11,229 bases of DNA, from the IMG/VR virus record IMGVR_UViG_2711768032_000007; one strand, given 5' to 3'. Below the pieces are notes generated by a model. The model did not search any database, was not told where the DNA came from, and worked only from the letters and a program-made list of their open reading frames with translations. Made by a program: the position numbers and the translations under genes. The stretch comes from a virus (Duplodnaviria; Heunggongvirae; Uroviricota; Caudoviricetes). This document shows, one piece after another, positions 1,935 through 10,960 of this stretch. Numbering within the stretch: position 1 is the stretch's first letter; each line of letters opens with the position of its first letter.

Positions 1935-3098
1935 TCACTCGTCATCTTCTGTTTCGTACTCCACATCAGAAAGCCTGACCTCAAGCTCCAGGGACGTCGT
2001 GAAGCCGCTATTATTCAGAAAATGTGTCACCTTAGTGATTGTCCAGTCCTGCTCGTCTATGACGCGCTTAAAGCCTGACACTTTGACCGGTGTTTCCGTG
2101 TAAATATCTGCACGACCGGTAGCCAGGCTGATGGAGAACTCCGCAACGCCCCGTTGCAGTTTATCCCACTTCGCCTGAGCGGCGCGCATGGCCTGCGCTT
2201 TCGTGGCATATACCGTGGTCAGGGCAAAAACATTGTCAGCCTCACCGGCCATGTATTCACCTTCGCGCGCTTCCGGTACTTTTGGCGCTTTCTTCTGCGT
2301 GACCGGTTTCGCTTTCGGGTGCTCCAGTGCGCGCAGGTGTTTCTCTTTCTTTTTGCGTTTCAGTTTTACCTTCTGCTTTTGTGGCTTCGGGTCTTTGGTA
2401 TGTAACCACTTTGCCGTTACGCCTGTGTAGGCTCCACGGTCAGCAATCGCAAAATGATGACGGTCGCCGTCGCTGCGGGTGATGGTAATCTGCGGGATTT
2501 TTTTACCGCTGGCCGTCACCCCCTGCCCCGCTTTGAGAAACAGCAGTTTTCCCATTTTTACCGACACCTCACCGCCGTTGCGTTCAGCAAGACGGGTCAG
2601 GAATTTCGCATCGGACTCCTGCGACTGGTCGATGTGCGGGATTTTAATTCCGGCCAGTGACGGAGCGACACTGGCTTCCAGCCTGTTACGGGAGGCAATC
2701 GCCTCAACAATCGCACCGAGCGTGGTGTCATGCCAGGAGCCTTCCCGGCGGGAATTGAGCGTGCCACGAAAATCTGCACTCCGGGCGCGGATGGTGACCA
2801 CATCCGGTGCGCCCCGGTGTTCAACCTCATCAACGGTGAATTTCCCCTTGCATACCAGGGCAAAACCTTTCCAGCCGATATACACCGTCAGGACAGCGCC
2901 ACGAACCGGCAGCCCGACCTGCCCGTCGGCATCGTTCAGTTCAATATCAAGCTGGTCAGCCTCAAAGCCCCGGTTATCCGTCAGGGTCATGCTCATCAGA
3001 CGGTCACTGATATTGCCGGTAATATCCCTGCTGTCGAGCATCAGCATGTAATCCGGCGTCAGCGTACTGCCTGCATCAAATGTCAGCGCATCCAGCAT
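1935..3098 (-). CDS. D: P2 gpD-like tail protein (late control gene D protein)
   Basis: 387-aa ORF with the same length and position as P2 gpD (after U, before ogr). Its start overlaps the U stop (TAATG). Confidence 0.9.
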   Translation of the reverse strand: MLDALTFDAGSTLTPDYMLMLDSRDITGNISDRLMSMTLTDNRGFEADQLDIELNDADGQVGLPVRGAVLTVYIGWKGFALVCKGKFTVDEVEHRGAPDVVTIRARSADFRGTLNSRREGSWHDTTLGAIVEAIASRNRLEASVAPSLAGIKIPHIDQSQESDAKFLTRLAERNGGEVSVKMGKLLFLKAGQGVTASGKKIPQITITRSDGDRHHFAIADRGAYTGVTAKWLHTKDPKPQKQKVKLKRKKKEKHLRALEHPKAKPVTQKKAPKVPEAREGEYMAGEADNVFALTTVYATKAQAMRAAQAKWDKLQRGVAEFSISLATGRADIYTETPVKVSGFKRVIDEQDWTITKVTHFLNNSGFTTSLELEVRLSDVEYETEDDE

Positions 3099-3577
3099 TA
3101 TCTCGCCCCCGTCATCCCCGTGAATCTGGTCGCCATACTGCCAGCCTTACCGATGAGCGATTCCGCCTGTTTACCGATATCGCCATAAAGCGCGGCCAGT
3201 GATTCATCAACGCGGGTGAGCGACAGCGTAAAATCAATTTTCCGGGGTGTGCCGTCTGCAAAGAAAATACTCCCTGTTTCACTCACCCTGCTGATGACAT
3301 ACATGCCGTAAATCATGCCGGTGCCATCCAGCAACGGCCACGCCCGGCCTTCCTCTGCCATCAGCCTGAGCGTGGTCATCGTCAGCTTCCCGCCGGTCAG
3401 TTCGGGATAAAGCACGCCGGCAAGCGTCATGTTTTCCTCACCCACACCGAGAAACTGAAAGGCATCCCGTTTACCGATACGGGAATTTGACGGCCAGCGA
3501 TAATCTGATTCGCGCTGCATGGTCTGGTGTGGCAGCGTCTGGCGCATAAAAACAAACATACCTAACGCGAGCATCAT
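3098..3577 (-). CDS. U: P2 gpU-like tail protein
   Basis: 159-aa ORF between T and D, matching P2 gpU in length and position. Stop codon overlaps the D start, suggesting translational coupling. Confidence 0.9.
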   Translation of the reverse strand: MMLALGMFVFMRQTLPHQTMQRESDYRWPSNSRIGKRDAFQFLGVGEENMTLAGVLYPELTGGKLTMTTLRLMAEEGRAWPLLDGTGMIYGMYVISRVSETGSIFFADGTPRKIDFTLSLTRVDESLAALYGDIGKQAESLIGKAGSMATRFTGMTGAR

Positions 3578-3591
3578 TTTTCGTCACCTCC

Positions 3592-6039
3592 TTAACCGTC
3601 ATGCATCATGCTGGCACGGGCGCGCGCACGTTTATCCCGCTCGTATTTTTCGAGCGCATCCTGTAACTGGCGGTCGAGCTGAGTCCCCGGCGCAGTACCG
3701 CCCGTCAGACTGATGTGATATTCGTTTTTACTCTGGTCCACATAAGAGCGGCCAGCCGGTGCCGTAACCGGCTGATAAGCCTGATAGCCTGCATAAGAGC
3801 TGGTCGCCGGAATATAACCACCGGTGCCATACGTGGCGGCATGAGTTCTGGCGGCAGTCTGGTCAAGTGCGTCAGACTCTTTGTTGATAACACCGAGTTT
3901 TTCCAGTACCCAGTCAATACCACTGCGCAGTTTGTTGAACGCACTAAGCGGCAGCATCAACGCGTCAGCCAGTGCCTGCCCGAACATGACGCCCGTGTCA
4001 CGGCAACGATTCAGGGTGTCCTGGGTGGCTTTGACCGGGGCAATCAGGTTTTTAAACCACTGCCACGCGGCCTGTAACTTTTCACCCAGCCAGTCAAACA
4101 CCGGTTTAAGTGGCGTGAACAGTTCCCCCACCGGCGCAAATGCCGCTTTCAGCCCTTCCACCACACCGCCAAAGAATGCGCTGACAGGCTCCCAGTATTT
4201 ACGGATAAGCAACGCCCCGGCGACAATAGCGGCCACCACGGCCACAACCGGCCAGCTAATCGCCCCGATGGCCGTCATAACAGCACTGCCAACCGTCGTG
4301 AAGATTGCCCCCATTGCGCCTGCTGCCGCGATGATGGCATTGATGCCGGTGATAACCGGCCAGGCTACAAGACCAATGGCACCGATGATGCCAGTAAGTG
4401 CCAGCGCGCCACCGGCAATGAGGCCAATGGTTGACGCCAGTGATTTGTTTTTCTGGATCCAGCCGTCGAGTTTTAACACATACTTTGTGGCCGTCTGCGT
4501 GAGCTTACGCAGTGCGCCTTCCTGCTGGTCAAACAGGTCAGTCCCCACCGCCTCATAAGCGGACTGAAACTCCTTAAAGTCACCGCCGAGGTTGTCCTGC
4601 ATGATATTTACCAGCTCTGCGGTCTTCCCGTCTGAGGCTTTAAACGCAGCGGTCAGTTTGTCCAGCTTTCCGGTTGAGGCGGCAGTCATCAGCACAGCGG
4701 CGGCTGAGCTGGCCTCCTCCCCGAAAATGGTTTTCATGTATTCAGCCTGCTGGGCAGTACCGAGCCGGTTTTTCTCAAAACTGGCCTGCATTTCTTTCAG
4801 AATGGTAAATACTGGTCGGGTGTTTCCCTTGCTGTCTGAGGTTTTCACACCAAGCTCTTTCAGTGCATCCCATGCTTTTCCCGTCGGTGCCTGCAGGCGG
4901 CTTAACACGGCACGGCTTCCCGTCCCCGCCATTGAACCGGTAATTTTTGCGTCATGCAGCGCCCCGACCATTGCGGCGGTTTCTTCAATGCTGACACCGG
5001 CATTTTTTGCCACTGGTGCGGCATAGGTCAGCGCATCGCTCATACCGTCAAAATCGGCGGCGGTTTTGTTCATCGTCATGGAGAGAACATCCCCGATATG
5101 AGCGACCTTATCGTTTGAAAGCTGAAAGGCGGATTTCATCCCCATCAGCAGGGCGGCGTTTTCTTCCATCGTGCGGCGGTTCGCCAGCGCCATATTCAGC
5201 GTGACCGGCGTTGCCGCCTGAATGGCATCAACATCCCCACCGGCTTTCGCAATGATAATCTGCGCACCGGCAGCATCATCCGCCGAGGCGGCAGTATTGT
5301 CGCCGAGCTGGCGCGCCTGTTTGCGGAGCGCGGCCATTTCGGCGGAATCTTTTGCCACACCGAGCACAGCCTGCAATTCTGAGTTTTTCTGCGCAAACTC
5401 ATAACCGGGCATCAGCAGCTTAACTCCGGCCATCGTTCCCGCCGCCGCAATCCCCACACCGGCAGCGCCCACTGAGGCCATATTTCCGGCAAGTTCTTTT
5501 CCTGCCTGATAACGCTGTTTGACTGCGTTAAGTTTTGCCTGTTGTGCACTGACACGCGCCAGCGCGTCACGCTGCCGGTTAAGCTGTGCGGTGGTTTCAC
5601 TGATACGGTTTTTCAGCCCCTGCTCATCATGTGCAAGATTGCGGGTATTAATTCCCACAGCGGCCAGTTCCCGCTGCTGGCGTTTAACGGAATCCGTCAG
5701 GCGGTTATATTTCGCCTGTAAGTCCTCCGCCGCACGCTTTGCGGATTCCAGCACTTTCGCCTGAGCACGGGTCGGACGTTCAGTGTTTTTAAACTGTGTG
5801 GCAAGTGCTTCGGCCTCCTGCCGTGCCTTTTCAAGTGCATGACCAGTCACGGCGAGCTGTGCACTGGTCTTGCGAAACCCCTCAATACGGGATGCCTGAC
5901 CGTTCAGCTCGCGCAGTGATTTTTGTGTTTCCCGGATATCCCCCGACAGCGACTTACTCGCTGTGCGGATGGATTTAAACGGGCGGGATGCCTGGTCAAC
6001 AGCCCTGAGCAATACCTGTAATTTTACATTGTTACTCAT
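3592..6039 (-). CDS. T: P2 gpT-like tail tape measure protein
   Basis: 815-aa ORF with coiled-coil-like Ala/Gln-rich N-terminal part and Gly/Ala-rich hydrophobic segments typical of tape measure proteins. Length and position (after E/E', before U) match P2 gpT. Confidence 0.9.
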   Translation of the reverse strand: MSNNVKLQVLLRAVDQASRPFKSIRTASKSLSGDIRETQKSLRELNGQASRIEGFRKTSAQLAVTGHALEKARQEAEALATQFKNTERPTRAQAKVLESAKRAAEDLQAKYNRLTDSVKRQQRELAAVGINTRNLAHDEQGLKNRISETTAQLNRQRDALARVSAQQAKLNAVKQRYQAGKELAGNMASVGAAGVGIAAAGTMAGVKLLMPGYEFAQKNSELQAVLGVAKDSAEMAALRKQARQLGDNTAASADDAAGAQIIIAKAGGDVDAIQAATPVTLNMALANRRTMEENAALLMGMKSAFQLSNDKVAHIGDVLSMTMNKTAADFDGMSDALTYAAPVAKNAGVSIEETAAMVGALHDAKITGSMAGTGSRAVLSRLQAPTGKAWDALKELGVKTSDSKGNTRPVFTILKEMQASFEKNRLGTAQQAEYMKTIFGEEASSAAAVLMTAASTGKLDKLTAAFKASDGKTAELVNIMQDNLGGDFKEFQSAYEAVGTDLFDQQEGALRKLTQTATKYVLKLDGWIQKNKSLASTIGLIAGGALALTGIIGAIGLVAWPVITGINAIIAAAGAMGAIFTTVGSAVMTAIGAISWPVVAVVAAIVAGALLIRKYWEPVSAFFGGVVEGLKAAFAPVGELFTPLKPVFDWLGEKLQAAWQWFKNLIAPVKATQDTLNRCRDTGVMFGQALADALMLPLSAFNKLRSGIDWVLEKLGVINKESDALDQTAARTHAATYGTGGYIPATSSYAGYQAYQPVTAPAGRSYVDQSKNEYHISLTGGTAPGTQLDRQLQDALEKYERDKRARARASMMHDG

Positions 6040-6459
6040 TCGTGTTTCCGCTTCGCCGGAGCGCCTTTTCGCGCCATGTGATGAGTTCGGTCAGGCTCAT
6101 GGGATACAGTTCTGATGGCGGCCAGTGAAATATCACTGCCACATCCGCCATCAGGTCATCGACCGAGAGATTTTTCGGGAACGTCACTGCACCGAGTTCG
6201 GCGACAAAAAACCGACCACCTTACCGGCCAGCGCCACAAGGTCAGGCAGTTCCAGTGCGGCGACCTCCTGCTCGGTCAGCATCGGTGCCGTCATGCGCGG
6301 CAGCACTTTAATCAGTGCATCGACTTCGGAGTTTGCGACCGCAGCCAGACTGACACCGCGCAGCGTCCCGGCATTAGGTTTCATCAGCGTGACCTGTTCG
6401 ATAACCTGCTCACCACGCTTGACCGGATTGTCCAGGGTAATCACATTTTCTTTGTTCAT
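6032..6459 (-). CDS. E+E': Tail assembly chaperone E+E' (product of a programmed -1 ribosomal frameshift)
   Basis: Manual translation: a -1 slip on T_TTT_TTG (6205-6211, minus strand) continues the E reading frame in an open frame to a TAA at 6032-6034. That stop lies just past the T start codon (6037-6039). Same architecture as P2 E/E'. Confidence 0.65.
6184..6459 (-). CDS. E: Tail assembly chaperone gpE (zero-frame product)
   Basis: 91-aa ORF MNKENVITLDNPVKRGEQ...GKVVGFLSPNSVQ. Size and position (between FII and T) match P2 gpE. Contains the slippery heptamer near its 3' end. Confidence 0.85.
   Translation of the reverse strand: MNKENVITLDNPVKRGEQVIEQVTLMKPNAGTLRGVSLAAVANSEVDALIKVLPRMTAPMLTEQEVAALELPDLVALAGKVVGFLSPNSVQ
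6205..6211 (-). promoter_or_regulatory. Slippery heptamer T_TTT_TTG for the E to E' programmed -1 frameshift
   Basis: Plus strand reads CAAAAAA at 6205-6211. On the minus strand, in the E frame, this is GGT TTT TTG encoding G-F-L of ...VVGFLSPNSVQ. Conserved recoding site of P2-like and many other tailed phages. Confidence 0.7.
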
Positions 6460-6487
6460 GGTTTTCTCACTTCTGAATCGGGGTTAA

Positions 6488-6508
6488 CCGGTCAGCCAGG
6501 CTGACCGG
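6488..6508 (-). other. Perfect intercistronic hairpin between FII and E (9-bp stem, 3-nt loop)
   Basis: CCGGTCAGC cag GCTGACCGG. No U-run follows on the minus strand, so it is more likely an RNA processing or stability element than a terminator. Confidence 0.4.
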
Positions 6509-6515
6509 ATGAAAA

Positions 6516-7034
6516 TCACAGGCCGATATTGCGGCGGTGTTGCTCCAGCCGGTCGACGCCGTTCACCTTCTCAATCATGTTGATGGTGTCGATTTCGACC
6601 AGCTCCTTACCGTCCATCGTCAGCCGGAAATAGGTGCAGACCACGGAGATTTTCGACTCGGTGTCTTCTCCCTGTTTGCCCTCGCCGGTGTCGATTTCTT
6701 TCTGACGTCCACGCATGACCACCTCGACGGCCACCGTTTCGCCGGTATCGTCGCGCTGGTAAGAGCCTGCAAAACGAATCGGTACGGCATCCACACCGGT
6801 TGCGGCGTAAAGCTCCCAGATAACCGAATCCGGGAAGCCCCCGAGCGACCACTCCATTGACAGCGCATCGTCATCAAGGCCGAGGTCTACCGGTGCGCTG
6901 CCGTTCATCCCCGCACCGCGATAGTTTTCAAGCTTACGGGTCAGTTTTGGCAGCGTGACGGACTTTGCAACGCCCTGATAGCTGTAGCCGTTCAGAAAGA
7001 CGTTCATTAACTTGAGTTTGCGCGGCATTGCCAT
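6516..7034 (-). CDS. FII: P2 gpFII-like tail tube protein
   Basis: 172-aa ORF directly downstream of the sheath gene with a GGAG ribosome-binding site. Length and position match P2 gpFII. Confidence 0.9.
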   Translation of the reverse strand: MAMPRKLKLMNVFLNGYSYQGVAKSVTLPKLTRKLENYRGAGMNGSAPVDLGLDDDALSMEWSLGGFPDSVIWELYAATGVDAVPIRFAGSYQRDDTGETVAVEVVMRGRQKEIDTGEGKQGEDTESKISVVCTYFRLTMDGKELVEIDTINMIEKVNGVDRLEQHRRNIGL

Positions 7035-7046
7035 CGGTCAGGCTCC

Positions 7047-8237
7047 TTAATTGCTGTTAACCGAAGTGACCAGATTTGCCAGGTATTTATCGGTAATACG
7101 CTGGCGCAGGGTCAGGTTTTCAAGAGGAGGCACCGGTGTATAGTCGTAGTCGATATACAGTTTTCCGGCCTTGAGGGTTTCCGCATCGTTGGATTCTTCG
7201 CTGAACCAGCAGGTCGCATCCACGATATAGCCGTTTGTTTTCAGCTCACGGAATTTGGCATTGATGCCGTCAACGATGTCGCGAATCAGCGTTGCTGTGA
7301 TGGGCTTATCCACCGCCCACATATGCGCCTCAGCCATCGTGTCGGCCAGCACCTGCGCGGTGCGGGTGTAGTTTTCAAAGAGGAACAGCGGGTCATCAGA
7401 GCAGGTACGGTTACCCCAGAATCGGAAACCGTCGCGGCGAATCAGCGTAGTGACGCCTGACTCGTTAAGCAGGTCAGCATCGGTGCCGGACTCCTGCAAA
7501 TCCCAGAATACAGATGCGCTGATGCCGGTAACACCGTTTACCCCGACGTTGGACAGCGTTTTATGCCAGCCCTGCTCCTGGTCGATTTTAGCGCGCAGAC
7601 CCAGCGCACGGGCGGTGGCATACGCGGTGGCGGTGGTGCTGCTGACCGTATCCCATGCGAGGAAATCCGGCCAGATGACCATCAGCTCACGCTGGCTGAA
7701 ATTCTGACGGTAGGCTTTCACCTCGGAAATGGTTTTACAGCCCCATGCGCTGATATACCCGAAAGCGCGCAGCTTCTGACAGACTGATGCCAGTGCAACA
7801 GCCACCTCTTTGGTGTCCAGTCCCGGCACGCCGAGAATACGCGGTTTAACACCGGTTACCGACTCCGCCGCCAGCAGGGCTTTCAGTCCGGTGTACTGAC
7901 CGTTTTCGTCGGTGGTGCCGATGATATTGGAAACGGTCTGCGCGAGTTTCGTTTCCTCGTCGTCGCCGGTGCCGTCTTCCACACGCACGACAACGGTGAC
8001 CGGTTTTGACTGGTCGGCGATGGCCTGCAACGATGCCGCCAGCGTGCCTTTTTTACCAGCCTTTGCAATTGCGCTCTGCACATTGGTAATCAGCACCGGT
8101 TTATTGATGGGGAAGGTTTCCGCATCCGCATCGCTGGCCGTGCAGACCATGCCGACAATGGCCGTGGATACGGTGGAAATGACGCGGGTGCCGTCGTTAA
8201 TCTCCAGCACCTGCACGCCGTGATGATAGTCACTCAT
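7047..8237 (-). CDS. FI: P2 gpFI-like contractile tail sheath protein
   Basis: 396-aa ORF, first gene of the FI-FII-E-T-U-D operon. GGAG ribosome-binding site 8 nt upstream of the ATG. Length and position match P2 gpFI. Confidence 0.9.
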   Translation of the reverse strand: MSDYHHGVQVLEINDGTRVISTVSTAIVGMVCTASDADAETFPINKPVLITNVQSAIAKAGKKGTLAASLQAIADQSKPVTVVVRVEDGTGDDEETKLAQTVSNIIGTTDENGQYTGLKALLAAESVTGVKPRILGVPGLDTKEVAVALASVCQKLRAFGYISAWGCKTISEVKAYRQNFSQRELMVIWPDFLAWDTVSSTTATAYATARALGLRAKIDQEQGWHKTLSNVGVNGVTGISASVFWDLQESGTDADLLNESGVTTLIRRDGFRFWGNRTCSDDPLFLFENYTRTAQVLADTMAEAHMWAVDKPITATLIRDIVDGINAKFRELKTNGYIVDATCWFSEESNDAETLKAGKLYIDYDYTPVPPLENLTLRQRITDKYLANLVTSVNSN

Positions 8238-8268
8238 CCGTTTAACTCCGTGGTTAATGGGTGCAACT

Positions 8269-8315
8269 ATTATCCGTTGGGTAGTACATGAGACGCTATT
8301 TGACCTGGCTGGTCA
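8269..8315 (-). promoter_or_regulatory. Candidate late promoter for the FI operon (-10-like GATAAT, weak -35, upstream dyad TGACC-N5-GGTCA)
   Basis: On the minus strand, GATAAT lies at 8274-8269 with a poor -35, as expected for an activator-dependent promoter. A dyad sits at 8301-8315. A canonical Ogr-type TGT-N12-ACA site was NOT found by eye, so the call is weak. Confidence 0.3.
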
Positions 8316-8330
8316 GTGGATGAAACATCA

Positions 8331-8361
8331 GATAAAGAAAAGGCGGGCAATCTGCCCGCCT
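8331..8361 (-). terminator. Intrinsic terminator (minus strand) separating the accessory island from the FI operon
   Basis: Perfect 9-bp stem AGGCGGGCA / TGCCCGCCT with a 3-nt loop (8341-8361). On the minus strand it is followed by TTTCTTTATC. Confidence 0.5.
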
Positions 8362-8592
8362 GTCCTGATTTGTACACACTCATTTTCCGACTGACAATTT
8401 ACATAGCCAAAATGCTATCAAATCTGACAGCCTGTTTTGAGCGAAGAGGAACCTGAGATTGTGGTATGCTAATTTATGGGGAGCAGGTCAATTGTATTAG
8501 TTATCTTTTTGCCTTTCTTTATCCCATTTCTTTACAGTGGTCTGATACCACTCTTCACGTGTTCGTTATTCCTCTGCTCTGTCACTTGAATT

Positions 8593-9189
8593 TTAGTTGT
8601 CTGTTTTAATTTTTTTGCTTCCCTGGGAAATCGGCCTCCAGTCTTCTCTAATATTTTTCATCTGCTCAGCTATCTGTGTCATTGGACTCCTTGCACCTAA
8701 GTAGCTAACCCCCTCGAAAGAAGCCATATCATAAGAATACTCATTCCGCTCTCTTTCAGTTGAGCCCGGCTGTTTAGACCAGCTAATACTAACAGAATAA
8801 ACTTGATCTTTAATCTGGTCATACTTACAAAGACTGCTGTTGAGGGAATGGCCGTTTTTCAATACGCTAACCTTGCTAAATGGTATACCTTTATTTTTTC
8901 TATGTTCTGCATTAACCAGTGGGGGATTAAATCCGACTTCAATATCATAGGCTGGGGCATTTCCGGTATTAGCAATATTGATATCAAAATAAAAAGCAGC
9001 CCAAGAATTTGGTTCAAGAGTCACAACGACATGAGGTTGAACTGATGCGTCAACCATCCTTTTTGTCTCGTCTGCTAATAGCCTTGTTACTCTCCACAAG
9101 AAAAATGTAGCAACTGCTGTTAGCAATGCTGCCAAAGCGGAGATAAGTGTACTTACTGTGTTTATATGCTCTGCGATAAATTCGATCAT
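8593..9189 (-). CDS. Hypothetical membrane-anchored protein (198 aa; one N-terminal transmembrane helix plus ~160-aa soluble domain), accessory cargo
   Basis: ORF with an AAGGA ribosome-binding site about 7 nt upstream of the ATG. Residues ~11-32 (TVSTLISALAALLTAVATFFLW) form a hydrophobic helix. AT-rich codon usage unlike the flanking tail genes. No family recognised. Confidence 0.6.
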   Translation of the reverse strand: MIEFIAEHINTVSTLISALAALLTAVATFFLWRVTRLLADETKRMVDASVQPHVVVTLEPNSWAAFYFDINIANTGNAPAYDIEVGFNPPLVNAEHRKNKGIPFSKVSVLKNGHSLNSSLCKYDQIKDQVYSVSISWSKQPGSTERERNEYSYDMASFEGVSYLGARSPMTQIAEQMKNIREDWRPISQGSKKIKTDN

Positions 9190-9609
9190 GAGTTGTCCTT
9201 GGGGGCGTACTAATTGTTTTCAATACTAAAATAGCGCCGGGCTTGAAAAATTGCACACTTATGGTTCGATTTACCTCAACAGTTAAGGCTTCAACTTCCC
9301 CCATGCACCTCACCCAGCCCAAGACTGTATGAGGTCTGACAAAGAACTTCCTGACACTTGAAAACGAGGCAACGGCTAGGGTTTCTCGTAGGGCAAGGAT
9401 TGAATACGAAGCCTGTATATTGCTCCGCGAACGCTGCTGAGGGCAGTTTAAATGTTGGGCGTTTATGTAGCCTTTCACTCACCAGCATGAGTTCAATGTC
9501 TGTGAGTTACCGACAACAATATAAAGGGGGTGGCATCATCATATATCCAAGCTAGAGTCAAATCCTCTAACTGGTTTTATGATCAGTGTCAATTGTTTGA
9601 TTATTGAAC

Positions 9610-9638
9610 GTTTACGAAGCAGCACGGGAGCCATATAA
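9610..9638 (+). promoter_or_regulatory. Candidate sigma70 promoter for the DUF3606-like gene (TTTACG-N17-TATAAC)
   Basis: -35-like TTTACG at 9610-9615 and -10-like TATAAC at 9633-9638 with 17-bp spacing. The predicted start lies downstream of the 9642 ATG, which favours the 9681 start codon. Confidence 0.3.
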
Positions 9639-9680
9639 CTAATGGGCAGGTATAAGCCTGTATCACGAGGAATCAGTAAA

Positions 9681-9860
9681 ATGGCTGATGATAAGACCAA
9701 AATCGGTACCCCTGACAATGATTTAATAAGTATCAAACAGGATTACGAGAGACGTGATTGGGCTGAAAAGTTTGGAGTTAGCGAGACCAAACTTGTTCAA
9801 GCCGTACAGGCTGTAGGTCATTCGGCTAAGAAAGTACAGGCATGGCTTAAAGACCATTAA
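9681..9860 (+). CDS. DUF3606-like small protein (59 aa from ATG 9681; alternative 72-aa form from ATG 9642)
   Basis: MADDKTKIGTPDNDLISIKQDYERRDWAEKFGVSETKLVQAVQAVGHSAKKVQAWLKDH fits the DUF3606 pattern as I recall it (N-terminal MADDK..., central EKFGVS, C-terminal AV..VG). AGGA ribosome-binding site at 9668-9671. Confidence 0.65.
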   Translation: MADDKTKIGTPDNDLISIKQDYERRDWAEKFGVSETKLVQAVQAVGHSAKKVQAWLKDH

Positions 9861-9866
9861 TATATG

Positions 9867-9890
9867 AGCGCCTTTCTAGGCGCTTTTTTC
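9867..9890 (+). terminator. Intrinsic terminator after the DUF3606-like gene
   Basis: 7-bp stem AGCGCCT / AGGCGCT with loop TTCT, followed by TTTTTT (9885-9890). Confidence 0.5.
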
Positions 9891-9912
9891 TTTGTCCTTT
9901 GGGGGATGATTT

Positions 9913-10191
9913 ATGGCTAATAATTTATTTATTACTTACGACCTCATTAAAACGAAAGATTATGCGGCTGTGTATGATGCAATTAAATCTTTAGGAAATT
10001 GGGCTTTAACAACTGAATCGAACTGGTATGTTAACTGTAGTTACTCTGCCGAGGATGCAGCCAAAATTGTGAGGGCGGTCATGGATAGTGATGATAAGCT
10101 TATTGTTGTAGACGCAACCAATAACTCAGCTTATTGGTACAATCTCTCAGATGAAGTTAGTAACCAAATTCTGACTGAGTGGAACAAGTAA
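9913..10191 (+). CDS. Hypothetical small protein (92 aa), accessory cargo
   Basis: Strong GGGGGA Shine-Dalgarno motif 6 nt upstream of the ATG. Alternating hydrophobic and polar segments suggest a compact alpha/beta domain. No family recognised. Confidence 0.55.
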   Translation: MANNLFITYDLIKTKDYAAVYDAIKSLGNWALTTESNWYVNCSYSAEDAAKIVRAVMDSDDKLIVVDATNNSAYWYNLSDEVSNQILTEWNK

Positions 10192-10220
10192 TTAAAGGGG
10201 GTGGGTAGCCCCCTTTAATT
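10190..10220. terminator. Long perfect hairpin (12-bp stem) downstream of the 92-aa ORF, probable terminator
   Basis: AATTAAAGGGGG tgggtag CCCCCTTTAATT. The 3' half of the stem carries the U-rich tract. It lies between the convergent 92-aa ORF (plus) and tfa (minus). Confidence 0.5.
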
Positions 10221-10411
10221 CAGAAACTATCATGATTGAAACATTAAATATACTGGGTTAATTCTTTCATCCTTGCTCCCTTGCTATATGTCCTGAAAGC
10301 GTCCTTTTTAGCCTTCTGCTCAGTATGTCCGGTAATGGCACAGAGCGGACTGCCAGATTAGGCTTTACTCTGTGCCATAGATATGTAATCTCACACCAGA
10401 GCTTATACAAC

Positions 10412-10960
10412 TTATTGCGGCATTTCCGGCCATTCAGGATTTGCAGGATCCACACGACTGACCAAAACGCTGTAGCGTTCCCAAGCCTCCAGCCGTGTGC
10501 GCTCCTCCTCTGTTGCCATGTTCAGCCTGACAGCGCGCTCCAGCGGCAAAATCACGGATTCAGCATCTGCAAGAAGTCTGGCTTTCCGATTTTCTGCCTG
10601 CTGCTGCAATTCCTCTGCCGTATAAATGCGTTTAATCACTTTGCCGTCCTTAAACATCCAGTTCCCTGAAATGTCCGCCCGTCGGTTAGCAGTAATATCC
10701 GCCACTTCAACCACACTTAATCCATCCGGTCTGATAGCTGTCACATCCTTTTCCACATAGCGGATGATATTATCTTTGTCGTACGCTATTTTTATCGTGT
10801 CATCAGCAAAATACTTTTGTTCTTCGTACCAGTTCTTACCATCTTCTGTAAAAAACCAGACGACATCAAAGTTCTTTGTCAATTGATATTGTTCAACCGT
10901 TTTTGGATTACCTGCCGTTATATTTATCAAATGCTGCGTATTTTCATGAAAGGAGATCAC
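10412..10960 (-). CDS. G: Tail fibre assembly protein (P2 gpG / Tfa family); 5' end atypical and possibly disrupted
   Basis: C-terminal half (...[28 protein letters not shown]...[42 protein letters not shown]) is typical of Tfa chaperones, and AGNPKT is present near the N-terminus. The ORF has no in-frame ATG near the expected start: ACG sits where the family start Met is expected. The called start is a GTG at 10958-10960 that lies inside an IS-like repeat. Confidence 0.75.

Follow-up and report, generated by a model that had tools for sequence, protein, structure and literature searches.

Phage P2 carries Z/fun, its T5-exclusion gene, in the slot between the tail-fibre assembly gene G and the sheath gene FI. 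Here we describe an island which fills this slot in the 11,229-nucleotide stretch of IMG/VR virus record IMGVR_UViG_2711768032_000007 (the window), the right arm of a P2-like prophage in Escherichia coli. It holds ORF1 (open reading frame 1; DUF8453/phrog_11802) on the minus strand, termed module A, and on the plus strand a DUF3606 gene and the gene of a 92-aa protein, P92, together termed module B. Like Z/fun, the island occupies the G-FI slot between conserved borders and is non-essential AT-rich cargo. However, ORF1 has no similarity to the 299-aa ORF which occupies the slot in P2 (BLASTP, E 1.4), and the DNA of the two phages aligns at the borders only. Z/fun is a single gene, whereas the island consists of two cassettes on opposite strands, and no exclusion phenotype is known for it. 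In the paper on the P2-like phage R18C this place is termed the fun(Z) moron location (PMC6823313).

Similar cargo is described for the gpA-gpQ (old/tin) hotspot of P2 and the psu-int hotspot of P4 (Rousset et al. 2022, PMC9122126; bioRxiv 10.64898/2026.02.27.708500). These are different slots from that of the island, and they share with it conserved borders, fast-swapped AT-rich cargo, recombination scars and cargo common to other elements. The unannotated cargo of the P2 and P4 hotspots is often defensive when tested, and P2 and P4 almost never exchange defence genes (PMC9122126; bioRxiv 10.64898/2026.02.27.708500). In the island, by contrast, module B derives from a different type of element, one with an integrase. 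No system named in the accessible parts of these two sources matches the island proteins.

A further group for comparison is formed by single-pass membrane proteins of prophages which act in superinfection exclusion or abortive infection, such as the lactococcal Sie2009 and HK97 gp15. ORF1 is similar to them in its small size, the one N-terminal membrane helix, the globular domain and the organization as a stand-alone moron. However, the globular domain of ORF1 is predicted to be cytoplasmic, and no sequence or structural match to proteins of this type was found.

We suggest with moderate confidence that the island is moron cargo in which two unrelated mobile cassettes were brought together, and no single operon-like system. 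All three genes are real and under purifying selection. The initial annotation had proposed one candidate anti-phage system of three genes in the G-FI (Z/fun) slot. The ORFs are indeed those which it listed, at 8593-9189 on the minus strand (198 aa) and at 9642-9860 (DUF3606) and 9913-10191 (92 aa) on the plus strand, and the slot is the right one, as P2 holds an unrelated ORF between the same borders. The unity of the system is the part that we abandon.

Separate histories of the two cassettes

Among complete E. coli genomes, at an identity of at least 95%, module A is present in 104, module B in 102 and both in 99. All three genes are also found at 92% identity or more in 20 P2-like IMG/VR contigs. 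This co-occurrence is limited to one recent island lineage, the copies of which are at least 92% identical, and the co-inheritance check thus speaks against a three-gene system. DUF3606 and P92 are absent from the flanks of the diverged ORF1 loci (eight non-island loci of genomes and metagenomes and five viral ones), and ORF1 occurs in none of about 70 diverged P92 loci. Within IMG/VR, the loci that never combine the two are 5 diverged ones of ORF1 and 24 diverged ones of P92. As the diverged relatives never combine the modules, we conclude that the three-gene linkage reflects recent common descent of one composite and no shared requirement.

The origin of module B is recorded at its distal end. 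The minus strand carries at 10244-10339 the 3' end of the gene of a DUF6538-type tyrosine integrase, 31 codons and the stop, which came with module B. The frame reads AITGHTEQKAKKDAFRTYSKGARMKELTQYI before the stop codon, and the integrase of the locus L012 ends with AITGHTEQKAKTEAFRTYSKGAGMRELAEYV. L012 belongs to a set of E. coli integrative elements (L012-L015), in which DUF3606 and P92 are convergent with an integrase of this type. Positions 9570-10339 of the window align with L012-L015 over 774 nt at 79% identity, and the alignment runs past the hairpin after P92 into the integrase coding sequence. This 12-bp perfect hairpin, located at 10190-10220 right after the P92 stop codon, lies in the donor-type elements between the convergent P92 and integrase genes. 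The Rfam scan of the island gave one sub-threshold match only, and it falls on the same P92 terminator hairpin.

Since L012-L015 have the whole integrase gene and the window retains no more than a piece of it, the transfer proceeded from the integrase-bearing element to the P2 slot. The attachment of a foreign integrase fragment also means that module B was acquired separately. In related Klebsiella elements P92 adjoins the same type of integrase together with a phage capsid gene, which makes them satellite-like. The two genes of module B differ in history too, because their divergence from L012 is unequal: DUF3606 has a synonymous divergence (dS) of 0.41 and 92-97% amino-acid identity, while P92 has a proportion of synonymous differences (pS) of 0.81, which is saturated, and 76% amino-acid identity. 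We take this inequality as a sign that DUF3606 and P92 were recombined, with the exchange close to the terminator at 9866-9885.

The cassettes lie in DNA that is clearly foreign to the phage. In the tail genes the GC content is 0.55-0.59, but over about 8250-10350 it drops to 0.38-0.46, so that the AT-richness initially reported is real. Alignment to P2, P2-EC58 and P2-EC30 limits the foreign AT-rich cargo to about 8449-10335 (~1.9 kb), because 8238-8448 and 10336-10411 are conserved in P2 and in differently loaded Z-regions. Hence, the ~2.2-kb island first delimited at 8238-10411 does contain non-backbone cargo, but both of its edges are backbone. P2, P2-EC58 and P2-EC30 have other cargo between these borders, the occupant of P2 being the unrelated 299-aa ORF. 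The island thus displays the features of a moron, namely variable content between conserved borders, the GC drop and terminators of its own. Its genes are probably dispensable for the phage, judging from P2 and other P2-like phages that do without them.

The history of the island can thus be outlined. Cassette A comprises one gene with its own 5' region, the product of which is anchored in the inner membrane and is inactivated or shortened in the window by a nonsense codon. Cassette B, the DUF3606 gene with its own terminator and P92, is a copy of that end of an integrative, satellite-like element which adjoins the integrase gene. The composite then spread as a single block with P2-like phages. 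It is reasonable to regard both cassettes as candidate phage-conflict genes, and they may serve as accessory genes in conflicts between mobile elements.

Proteins of the two cassettes

When named defence systems were sought with PADLOC, Pfam, NCBIfam and PHROGs, the families that emerged were all of unknown function. In agreement with the initial annotation, which recognized no named defence protein, PADLOC-DB 2.0 returned no matches for ORF1 and non-significant ones for DUF3606 (PDC-M03B, E 0.025) and P92 (Cas2_II, E 0.019).

ORF1 (8593-9189, minus strand) matches phrog_11802 with E 7e-123 over profile positions 1-198 of 230. The intact allele, with the frame 8497-9189, reaches E 3e-147 over positions 1-230. 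Its name in RefSeq is DUF8453 domain-containing protein; the Pfam version searched with ORF1 had no model for DUF8453. At base 8593 the window has T in place of A in the relatives, and the codon TAT (Tyr199) is thus converted to TAA, with the stop at 8593-8595. The 198-aa membrane-anchored protein of the initial annotation is therefore a true ORF, but the natural length is 230 aa and the form seen here is truncated. The nonsense allele is present in 10 complete E. coli genomes, out of about 104 carriers, as identified with an exact 36-mer across base 8593, and these ten come from dog, human, cattle, rabbit-farm and wastewater sources. Since it is common to ten genomes of such varied sources, the truncated ORF1 has spread with its prophage and is no one-off lesion.

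In the AlphaFold (AF2) model of ORF1 (predicted local distance difference test score, pLDDT, 84.5) a long N-terminal helix holds the membrane segment and is followed by a seven-strand immunoglobulin-like sandwich (residues 54-154) and two C-terminal helices. The truncation deletes the last helix together with the near-invariant D203 and R204. Many residues are invariant in the family alignment. In 56 ORF1 sequences the mean number of lysines and arginines is 0.09 in the N-terminal segment versus 3.7 in the 15 residues past the transmembrane helix. This charge distribution predicts that the N-terminus is outside, while the C-terminal part with the sandwich and the charged helical tail is in the cytoplasm. 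The ratio of nonsynonymous to synonymous divergence (dN/dS) is 0.12-0.13 against two E. coli island copies.

The 5' region of ORF1 (9190-9328, minus strand) contains the ribosome-binding site, AAGGA 7 nt ahead of the ATG, and presumably the promoter. In other E. coli islands the DNA ahead of the ORF1 relatives is 81-85% identical to it, and the coding sequence with 133 nt of upstream DNA recurs alone in other islands. The spacer between the modules (9329-9569) has no homologue found outside the island lineage, positions 9329-9570 being without any other match. In the IMG/VR metagenome contigs L093 and L094, which carry an island variant with 92-98% protein identity, the spacer between ORF1 and DUF3606 is longer by ~310 nt; this orphan region is therefore variable.

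The ORF1 family is found in Enterobacteria, Xanthomonas, Sphingomonadaceae and Erythrobacter. Its members stand alone beside integrases in Klebsiella and Xanthomonas, adjoin a Mob_Pre relaxase and a Prim-Pol protein in Erythrobacter, lie beside a serine recombinase in tRNA-linked islands of E. coli and occur also in viral contigs. Two of the tRNA-linked copies, in the tRNA-Gly island of E. coli NCTC11023 (L023) and the tRNA-Leu island of E2348/69 (L022), are 86-87% identical in DNA to ORF1 and are placed at the island edge, divergent from the serine recombinase. Near the copy in L023 there are a DpdF helicase (E 6e-276) and a PDC-M04A/DUF3800 protein, and this is apparently a Dpd-type defence island. 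PDC-S39 lies beside the ORF1 relative in the viral contig L098, and an AbiJ N-terminal domain (AbiJ_NTD4), resolvases and integrases are found near further relatives. In the viral contigs L095 (2925-5255) and L096 (3385-5715) an ORF of 777 aa is located ~2 kb from an ORF1 relative of 64-69% identity. The P4 alpha primase is of this size, which may be a hint that DUF8453 rides P4-like satellites too.

We suggest that cassette A is most likely a single-gene, prophage-expressed membrane factor of exclusion or abortive infection, because of the membrane anchor, the stand-alone mobility and the defence-rich neighbourhoods of the family. From its neighbours, a role of ORF1 in defence is plausible.

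Module B begins with a leader and promoter region on the plus strand (9570-9680), and the homology to donor-type DNA (L012-L015) starts at 9570. A sigma-70-like promoter may be read by eye at 9611-9639 (TTTACG-17-TATAAC); the consensus promoter scan did not list it, owing to the final C of its -10 hexamer. The DUF3606 gene (9681-9860, plus strand) encodes 59 aa, or 72 aa from the alternative start at 9642. The start at 9681 is likelier, as it is the RefSeq start, agrees with the 59-aa PHROG profile and has GAGGA 7 nt upstream. The protein matches DUF3606 (PF12244) over all profile positions 1-54 of 54 with E 9e-18 (64.3 bits versus a cut-off of 24.3) and phrog_10779 with E 2e-38, and dN/dS against L012 is 0.05. 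The gene is followed by a strong intrinsic terminator at 9866-9885 (plus strand), an 8-pair stem and then TTTTCTTTGT, which separates it from P92. Every copy of this DUF3606 subfamily that we found adjoins P92. Among the P92 relatives examined outside the island lineage, DUF3606 lies upstream only in the E. coli integrative elements L012-L015 and L024 and in the viral contig L121.

P92 (9913-10191, plus strand; phrog_1090) is a ferredoxin-fold protein of 92 aa and belongs to a large family that is absent from Pfam. At E<=1e-3 the family counts 2417 clusters at 50% identity. Members with 45-58% identity to the E. coli protein are present in 46 species genomes, and the hosts comprise Gamma-, Alpha-, Beta- and Deltaproteobacteria, Campylobacterota, Acidobacteria and one genome labelled Flavobacterium. 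Phages, satellite-like elements and integrative elements all serve as carriers of these genes. Against L012 the proportion of nonsynonymous differences (pN) in P92 is 0.14 versus the pS of 0.81. The invariant residues M1, A2, N4, Y9, D10, Y17, L27, G28, S36, Y39, D58, D61 and W90 suggest an acidic pocket. We propose that P92 is the core of cassette B and may be a small enzyme or a binder of a ligand or nucleic acid, with D10, S36, D58, D61 and D67 forming the putative pocket, and that the helix-turn-helix-like DUF3606 protein would be its exchangeable partner or regulator.

The upstream neighbour of P92 is indeed exchangeable, since the position of DUF3606 is filled elsewhere by a basic peptide or by a DUF2188 protein. 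The basic peptide of 40-42 aa (consensus MAKK..RSAITGQFV..AK.HP.TTV.E..K; no Pfam family) precedes P92 in Klebsiella, Kosakonia, Pectobacterium, Serratia and Citrobacter, and the DUF2188 protein precedes it in three loci. Examples of upstream partners are L016:4815-4940, L029:4099-4224, L030:5823-5942 and L031:974-1096, as well as L033:4105-4362, L055:5687-5989 and L061:5672-5896. At this place the majority of P92 genes have a different gene or nothing conserved. The possibility that the DUF2188 protein is the anti-Thoeris sponge Tad2 was dropped, as Tad2 is DUF2829 according to its paper.

Integrases, ThsB-type TIR proteins, YhaV and TniB/TniQ are among the neighbours of P92 in the species genomes; in viral contigs the neighbours include integrases, Ogr/Delta, GPA, MqsRA, Abi_alpha, methylases and Zot. 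In two genomes, labelled Flavobacterium sp. and a Bacterioplanoides metagenome-assembled genome, the P92-family gene is located between cas3 and cse1 of a type I-E CRISPR-Cas locus (L037:6001-6279, with neighbours at 2796-5543 and 6336-7931; L072:6001-6279, with neighbours at 2965-5685 and 6325-7917). The order cas3-P92-cse1 and the DNA beyond it are syntenic at ~69% identity, so that P92 is a stable member of this operon lineage. The 1507-aa protein P0306 combines two P92-like stretches with Baseplate_J and CBM_5_12 domains. This is probably a run-through artefact of gene calling, though P92-like sequence may truly be fused to a structural protein of a phage here. Other long forms of P92 showed no Pfam domains.

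The fold brings P92 close to the ferredoxin-fold nucleases Cas2, VapD and BPSL1038, and it is reminiscent of the D11(X20)SST motif of BPSL1038 (PMC10491678). D10 is invariant and is placed at the end of the strand 3-10, where it may correspond to the Asp of Cas2. The Pfam CRISPR_Cas2 match (12.7 bits versus a cut-off of 23.8) is below threshold, and a profile of 53 P92 sequences found no Cas2, VapD or BPSL1038 chain in the PDB. Sequence searches of the PDB with single sequences or the profile gave no match for P92 or DUF3606, and the fold search of BFVD with P92 returned uncharacterised viral proteins only. As the profile matches are weak and the PDB search is empty, we treat the resemblance to Cas2 as a lead at the level of fold and not as membership. 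Moreover, the partners of Cas2 and VapD, cas1 and vapX, are both missing from the window, and the two cas-embedded relatives lie between cas3 and cse1 and not beside cas1.

Competing explanations

In our view a single new anti-phage system made up of all three genes, in which the lysogen would express a membrane effector along with two small sensor or regulator proteins, is highly improbable. Such a system would account for the joint presence in the hotspot of 99 genomes and 20 viral contigs, for the divergent arrangement with a common intergenic region and for the frequently defensive nature of hotspot cargo. However, all co-occurrences come from the single lineage of at least 92% identity, diverged ORF1 and P92 loci are separate, the integrase fossil marks the separate arrival of module B, and ten genomes retain the island despite the truncated ORF1. 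The persistence of this nonsense allele, the integrase fossil and the orphan spacer, along with the label 'putative lysogenic conversion protein' given to ORF1 in GenBank AJ512682, would also agree with another explanation, that ORF1 is a lysogenic-conversion factor for host physiology or envelope or that the whole island is decaying hitch-hiking DNA. We consider it quite unlikely: the cytoplasm-facing topology would leave little of ORF1 exposed at the envelope, the genes are under strong purifying selection and widely distributed, ORF1 has relatives among defence genes, and the label is a guess of the depositors for which no experiment was found in the literature.

Two further explanations concern module B. 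P92, alone or together with DUF3606, might act in counter-defence or host takeover and benefit the element at infection or induction. In favour of this are the very small size of the proteins and the many unrelated carriers of P92, which comprise phages, satellites and integrative elements and include the virulent P2-like R18C. Moreover, P92 has a conserved acidic pocket, binders of small ligands have the same fold, and it adjoins defence genes such as ThsB_TIR and cas. We nevertheless rate this as unlikely, because 45-58% identity across phyla is unusually high for anti-defence proteins, an inhibitor of type I-E systems would not be expected to reside stably in two diverged cas operons of this very type, and no characterised anti-defence protein was matched in the PDB or BFVD searches. 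An addiction pair of a Cas2/VapD-like nuclease toxin (P92) and a DNA-binding antitoxin (DUF3606) is improbable as well. It would explain the order of a small upstream gene followed by the 92-aa gene, the similarity of the P92 fold to Cas2, GhoS and BPSL1038, the invariant Asp with which beta-1 ends, a feature of Cas2 too, the weak in-register Cas2 profile matches (Pfam E 0.15; PADLOC Cas2_II as above) and the antitoxin-like exchange of the upstream partner. Yet the Cas2 matches are sub-threshold and the family profile finds no Cas2, VapD or BPSL1038 in the PDB, the strong terminator divides the two genes, their divergence from the donor-type element is unequal (dS 0.41 versus pS 0.81), and most P92 genes lack a conserved partner, which would be intolerable for a toxin. 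A type II toxin-antitoxin system is a co-transcribed pair always inherited together, and module B is not such a pair.

Returning to the two unrelated cassettes as phage-conflict genes, we note several points that weigh against this interpretation. There is no phenotype on record for ORF1, DUF3606 or P92, the ORF1 allele of the window is truncated and cassette A may be non-functional here, and defence proteins are usually larger than 59-92 aa. The virulent phage R18C retains the island, which fits a benefit to the phage at least as well as a defence of the host. The evidence from conflict neighbourhoods comes from few loci and has no background rate. For P92 and DUF3606 the small size, the presence in a virulent phage and the wide carriage by phages lean to a function that benefits the element; a typical inhibitor, on the other hand, would not be expected to show the high cross-phylum conservation of P92 or to reside in cas operons. 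That P92 founds a cross-phylum mobile family with a new role in conflicts and DUF8453 is at the same time a new membrane-anchored anti-phage factor is a tentative proposal, which we think possible and on the unlikely side.

The slot, its borders and earlier records

The prophage arm is integrated in the E. coli chromosome, and the window opens with yegQ (1-1362). The phage genes run on the minus strand: ogr (1635-1916), D (1935-3098), U (3098-3577), T (3592-6039), E/E' (6032-6459), FII (6516-7034), the sheath gene FI (7047-8237; Pfam Phage_sheath_1, E 9e-34) and, beyond the island, G (10412-10960; Caudo_TAP, E 2e-34).

The conserved backbone upstream of FI (8238-8448) presumably houses the late-promoter region of FI. 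Positions 8000-8448 are 95.8% identical to P2, and 8208-8445 have 96-97% identity to P2-EC58 and P2-EC30, both of which bear different cargo. An intrinsic terminator of the minus strand lies in this backbone 3' of ORF1 (8341-8361; 9-pair stem with 7 GC pairs, then TTTCTTTATC). At the other border the backbone downstream of G (10336-10411) has 85-95% identity to P2, P2-EC58 and P2-EC30 from 10327/10336 on, and folding places a hairpin with a 10-11-bp stem, GGCACAGAG...CTCTGTGCC, at 10337-10376, just downstream of G. Both hairpins that the initial annotation saw as bracketing the island are present; however, the one at 8341-8361 is inside the backbone, and the further terminator at 9866-9885 had been missed. 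In window coordinates, AJ512682 labels 8363-8453 as 'right inverted repeat' and 10321-10433 as 'left inverted repeat', and these labels recur in GenBank AJ512682, AJ512683 and AJ512676. As repeats of each other the borders were rejected, their complementarity score of 15 being at chance level (14.8 +/- 2.2 in shuffles). The 'inverted repeats' are simply the conserved borders of the slot, each with an internal hairpin.

The slot borders are matched in 1022 of 5426 complete E. coli genomes, and the whole island is present in the 99 already mentioned; strain D6 has an island 100% identical to that of the window. Over all 2174 nt the island is 98.7% identical to AJ512682, the Z-region of the P2-EC53 provirus, and 99.1% identical to the viable phage R18C (MN016939; ORFs 23/24). 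Both encode the intact 230-aa ORF1, unlike the window, and no function is given with either of them. Thus the island has been public as sequence since about 2003, and islands of its kind, cargo of P2 hotspots, are well known. The description of it as uncharacterised holds for the function, as no functional study on the island accession, DUF8453, DUF3606 or the Z-region was found in the literature, but not for the sequence, which was deposited as AJ512682 and discussed for R18C. Relative to all other copies AJ512682 (L001) has six single-base gaps, four of them within DUF3606 (the equivalent of window positions 9669-9871), which are probably sequencing errors. Only ORF1 is annotated there because the gaps shift the frame of DUF3606.

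The G-FI slot of P2-like phages is much less studied than the old/tin hotspot, and among the complete E. coli genomes with this slot about a tenth (99/1022) have the island in it. From the integrase fossil the direction of one such transfer can be read, namely that of cargo from an element with an integrase to a P2 hotspot. The presence of two separable cassettes changes how their function must be approached, each alone and ORF1 from the intact allele. The main interest of the island is in its two uncharacterised protein families and especially in P92, a tiny protein without a Pfam family that is highly conserved from Enterobacteria to Acidobacteria and Campylobacterota and resides in two type I-E operons.

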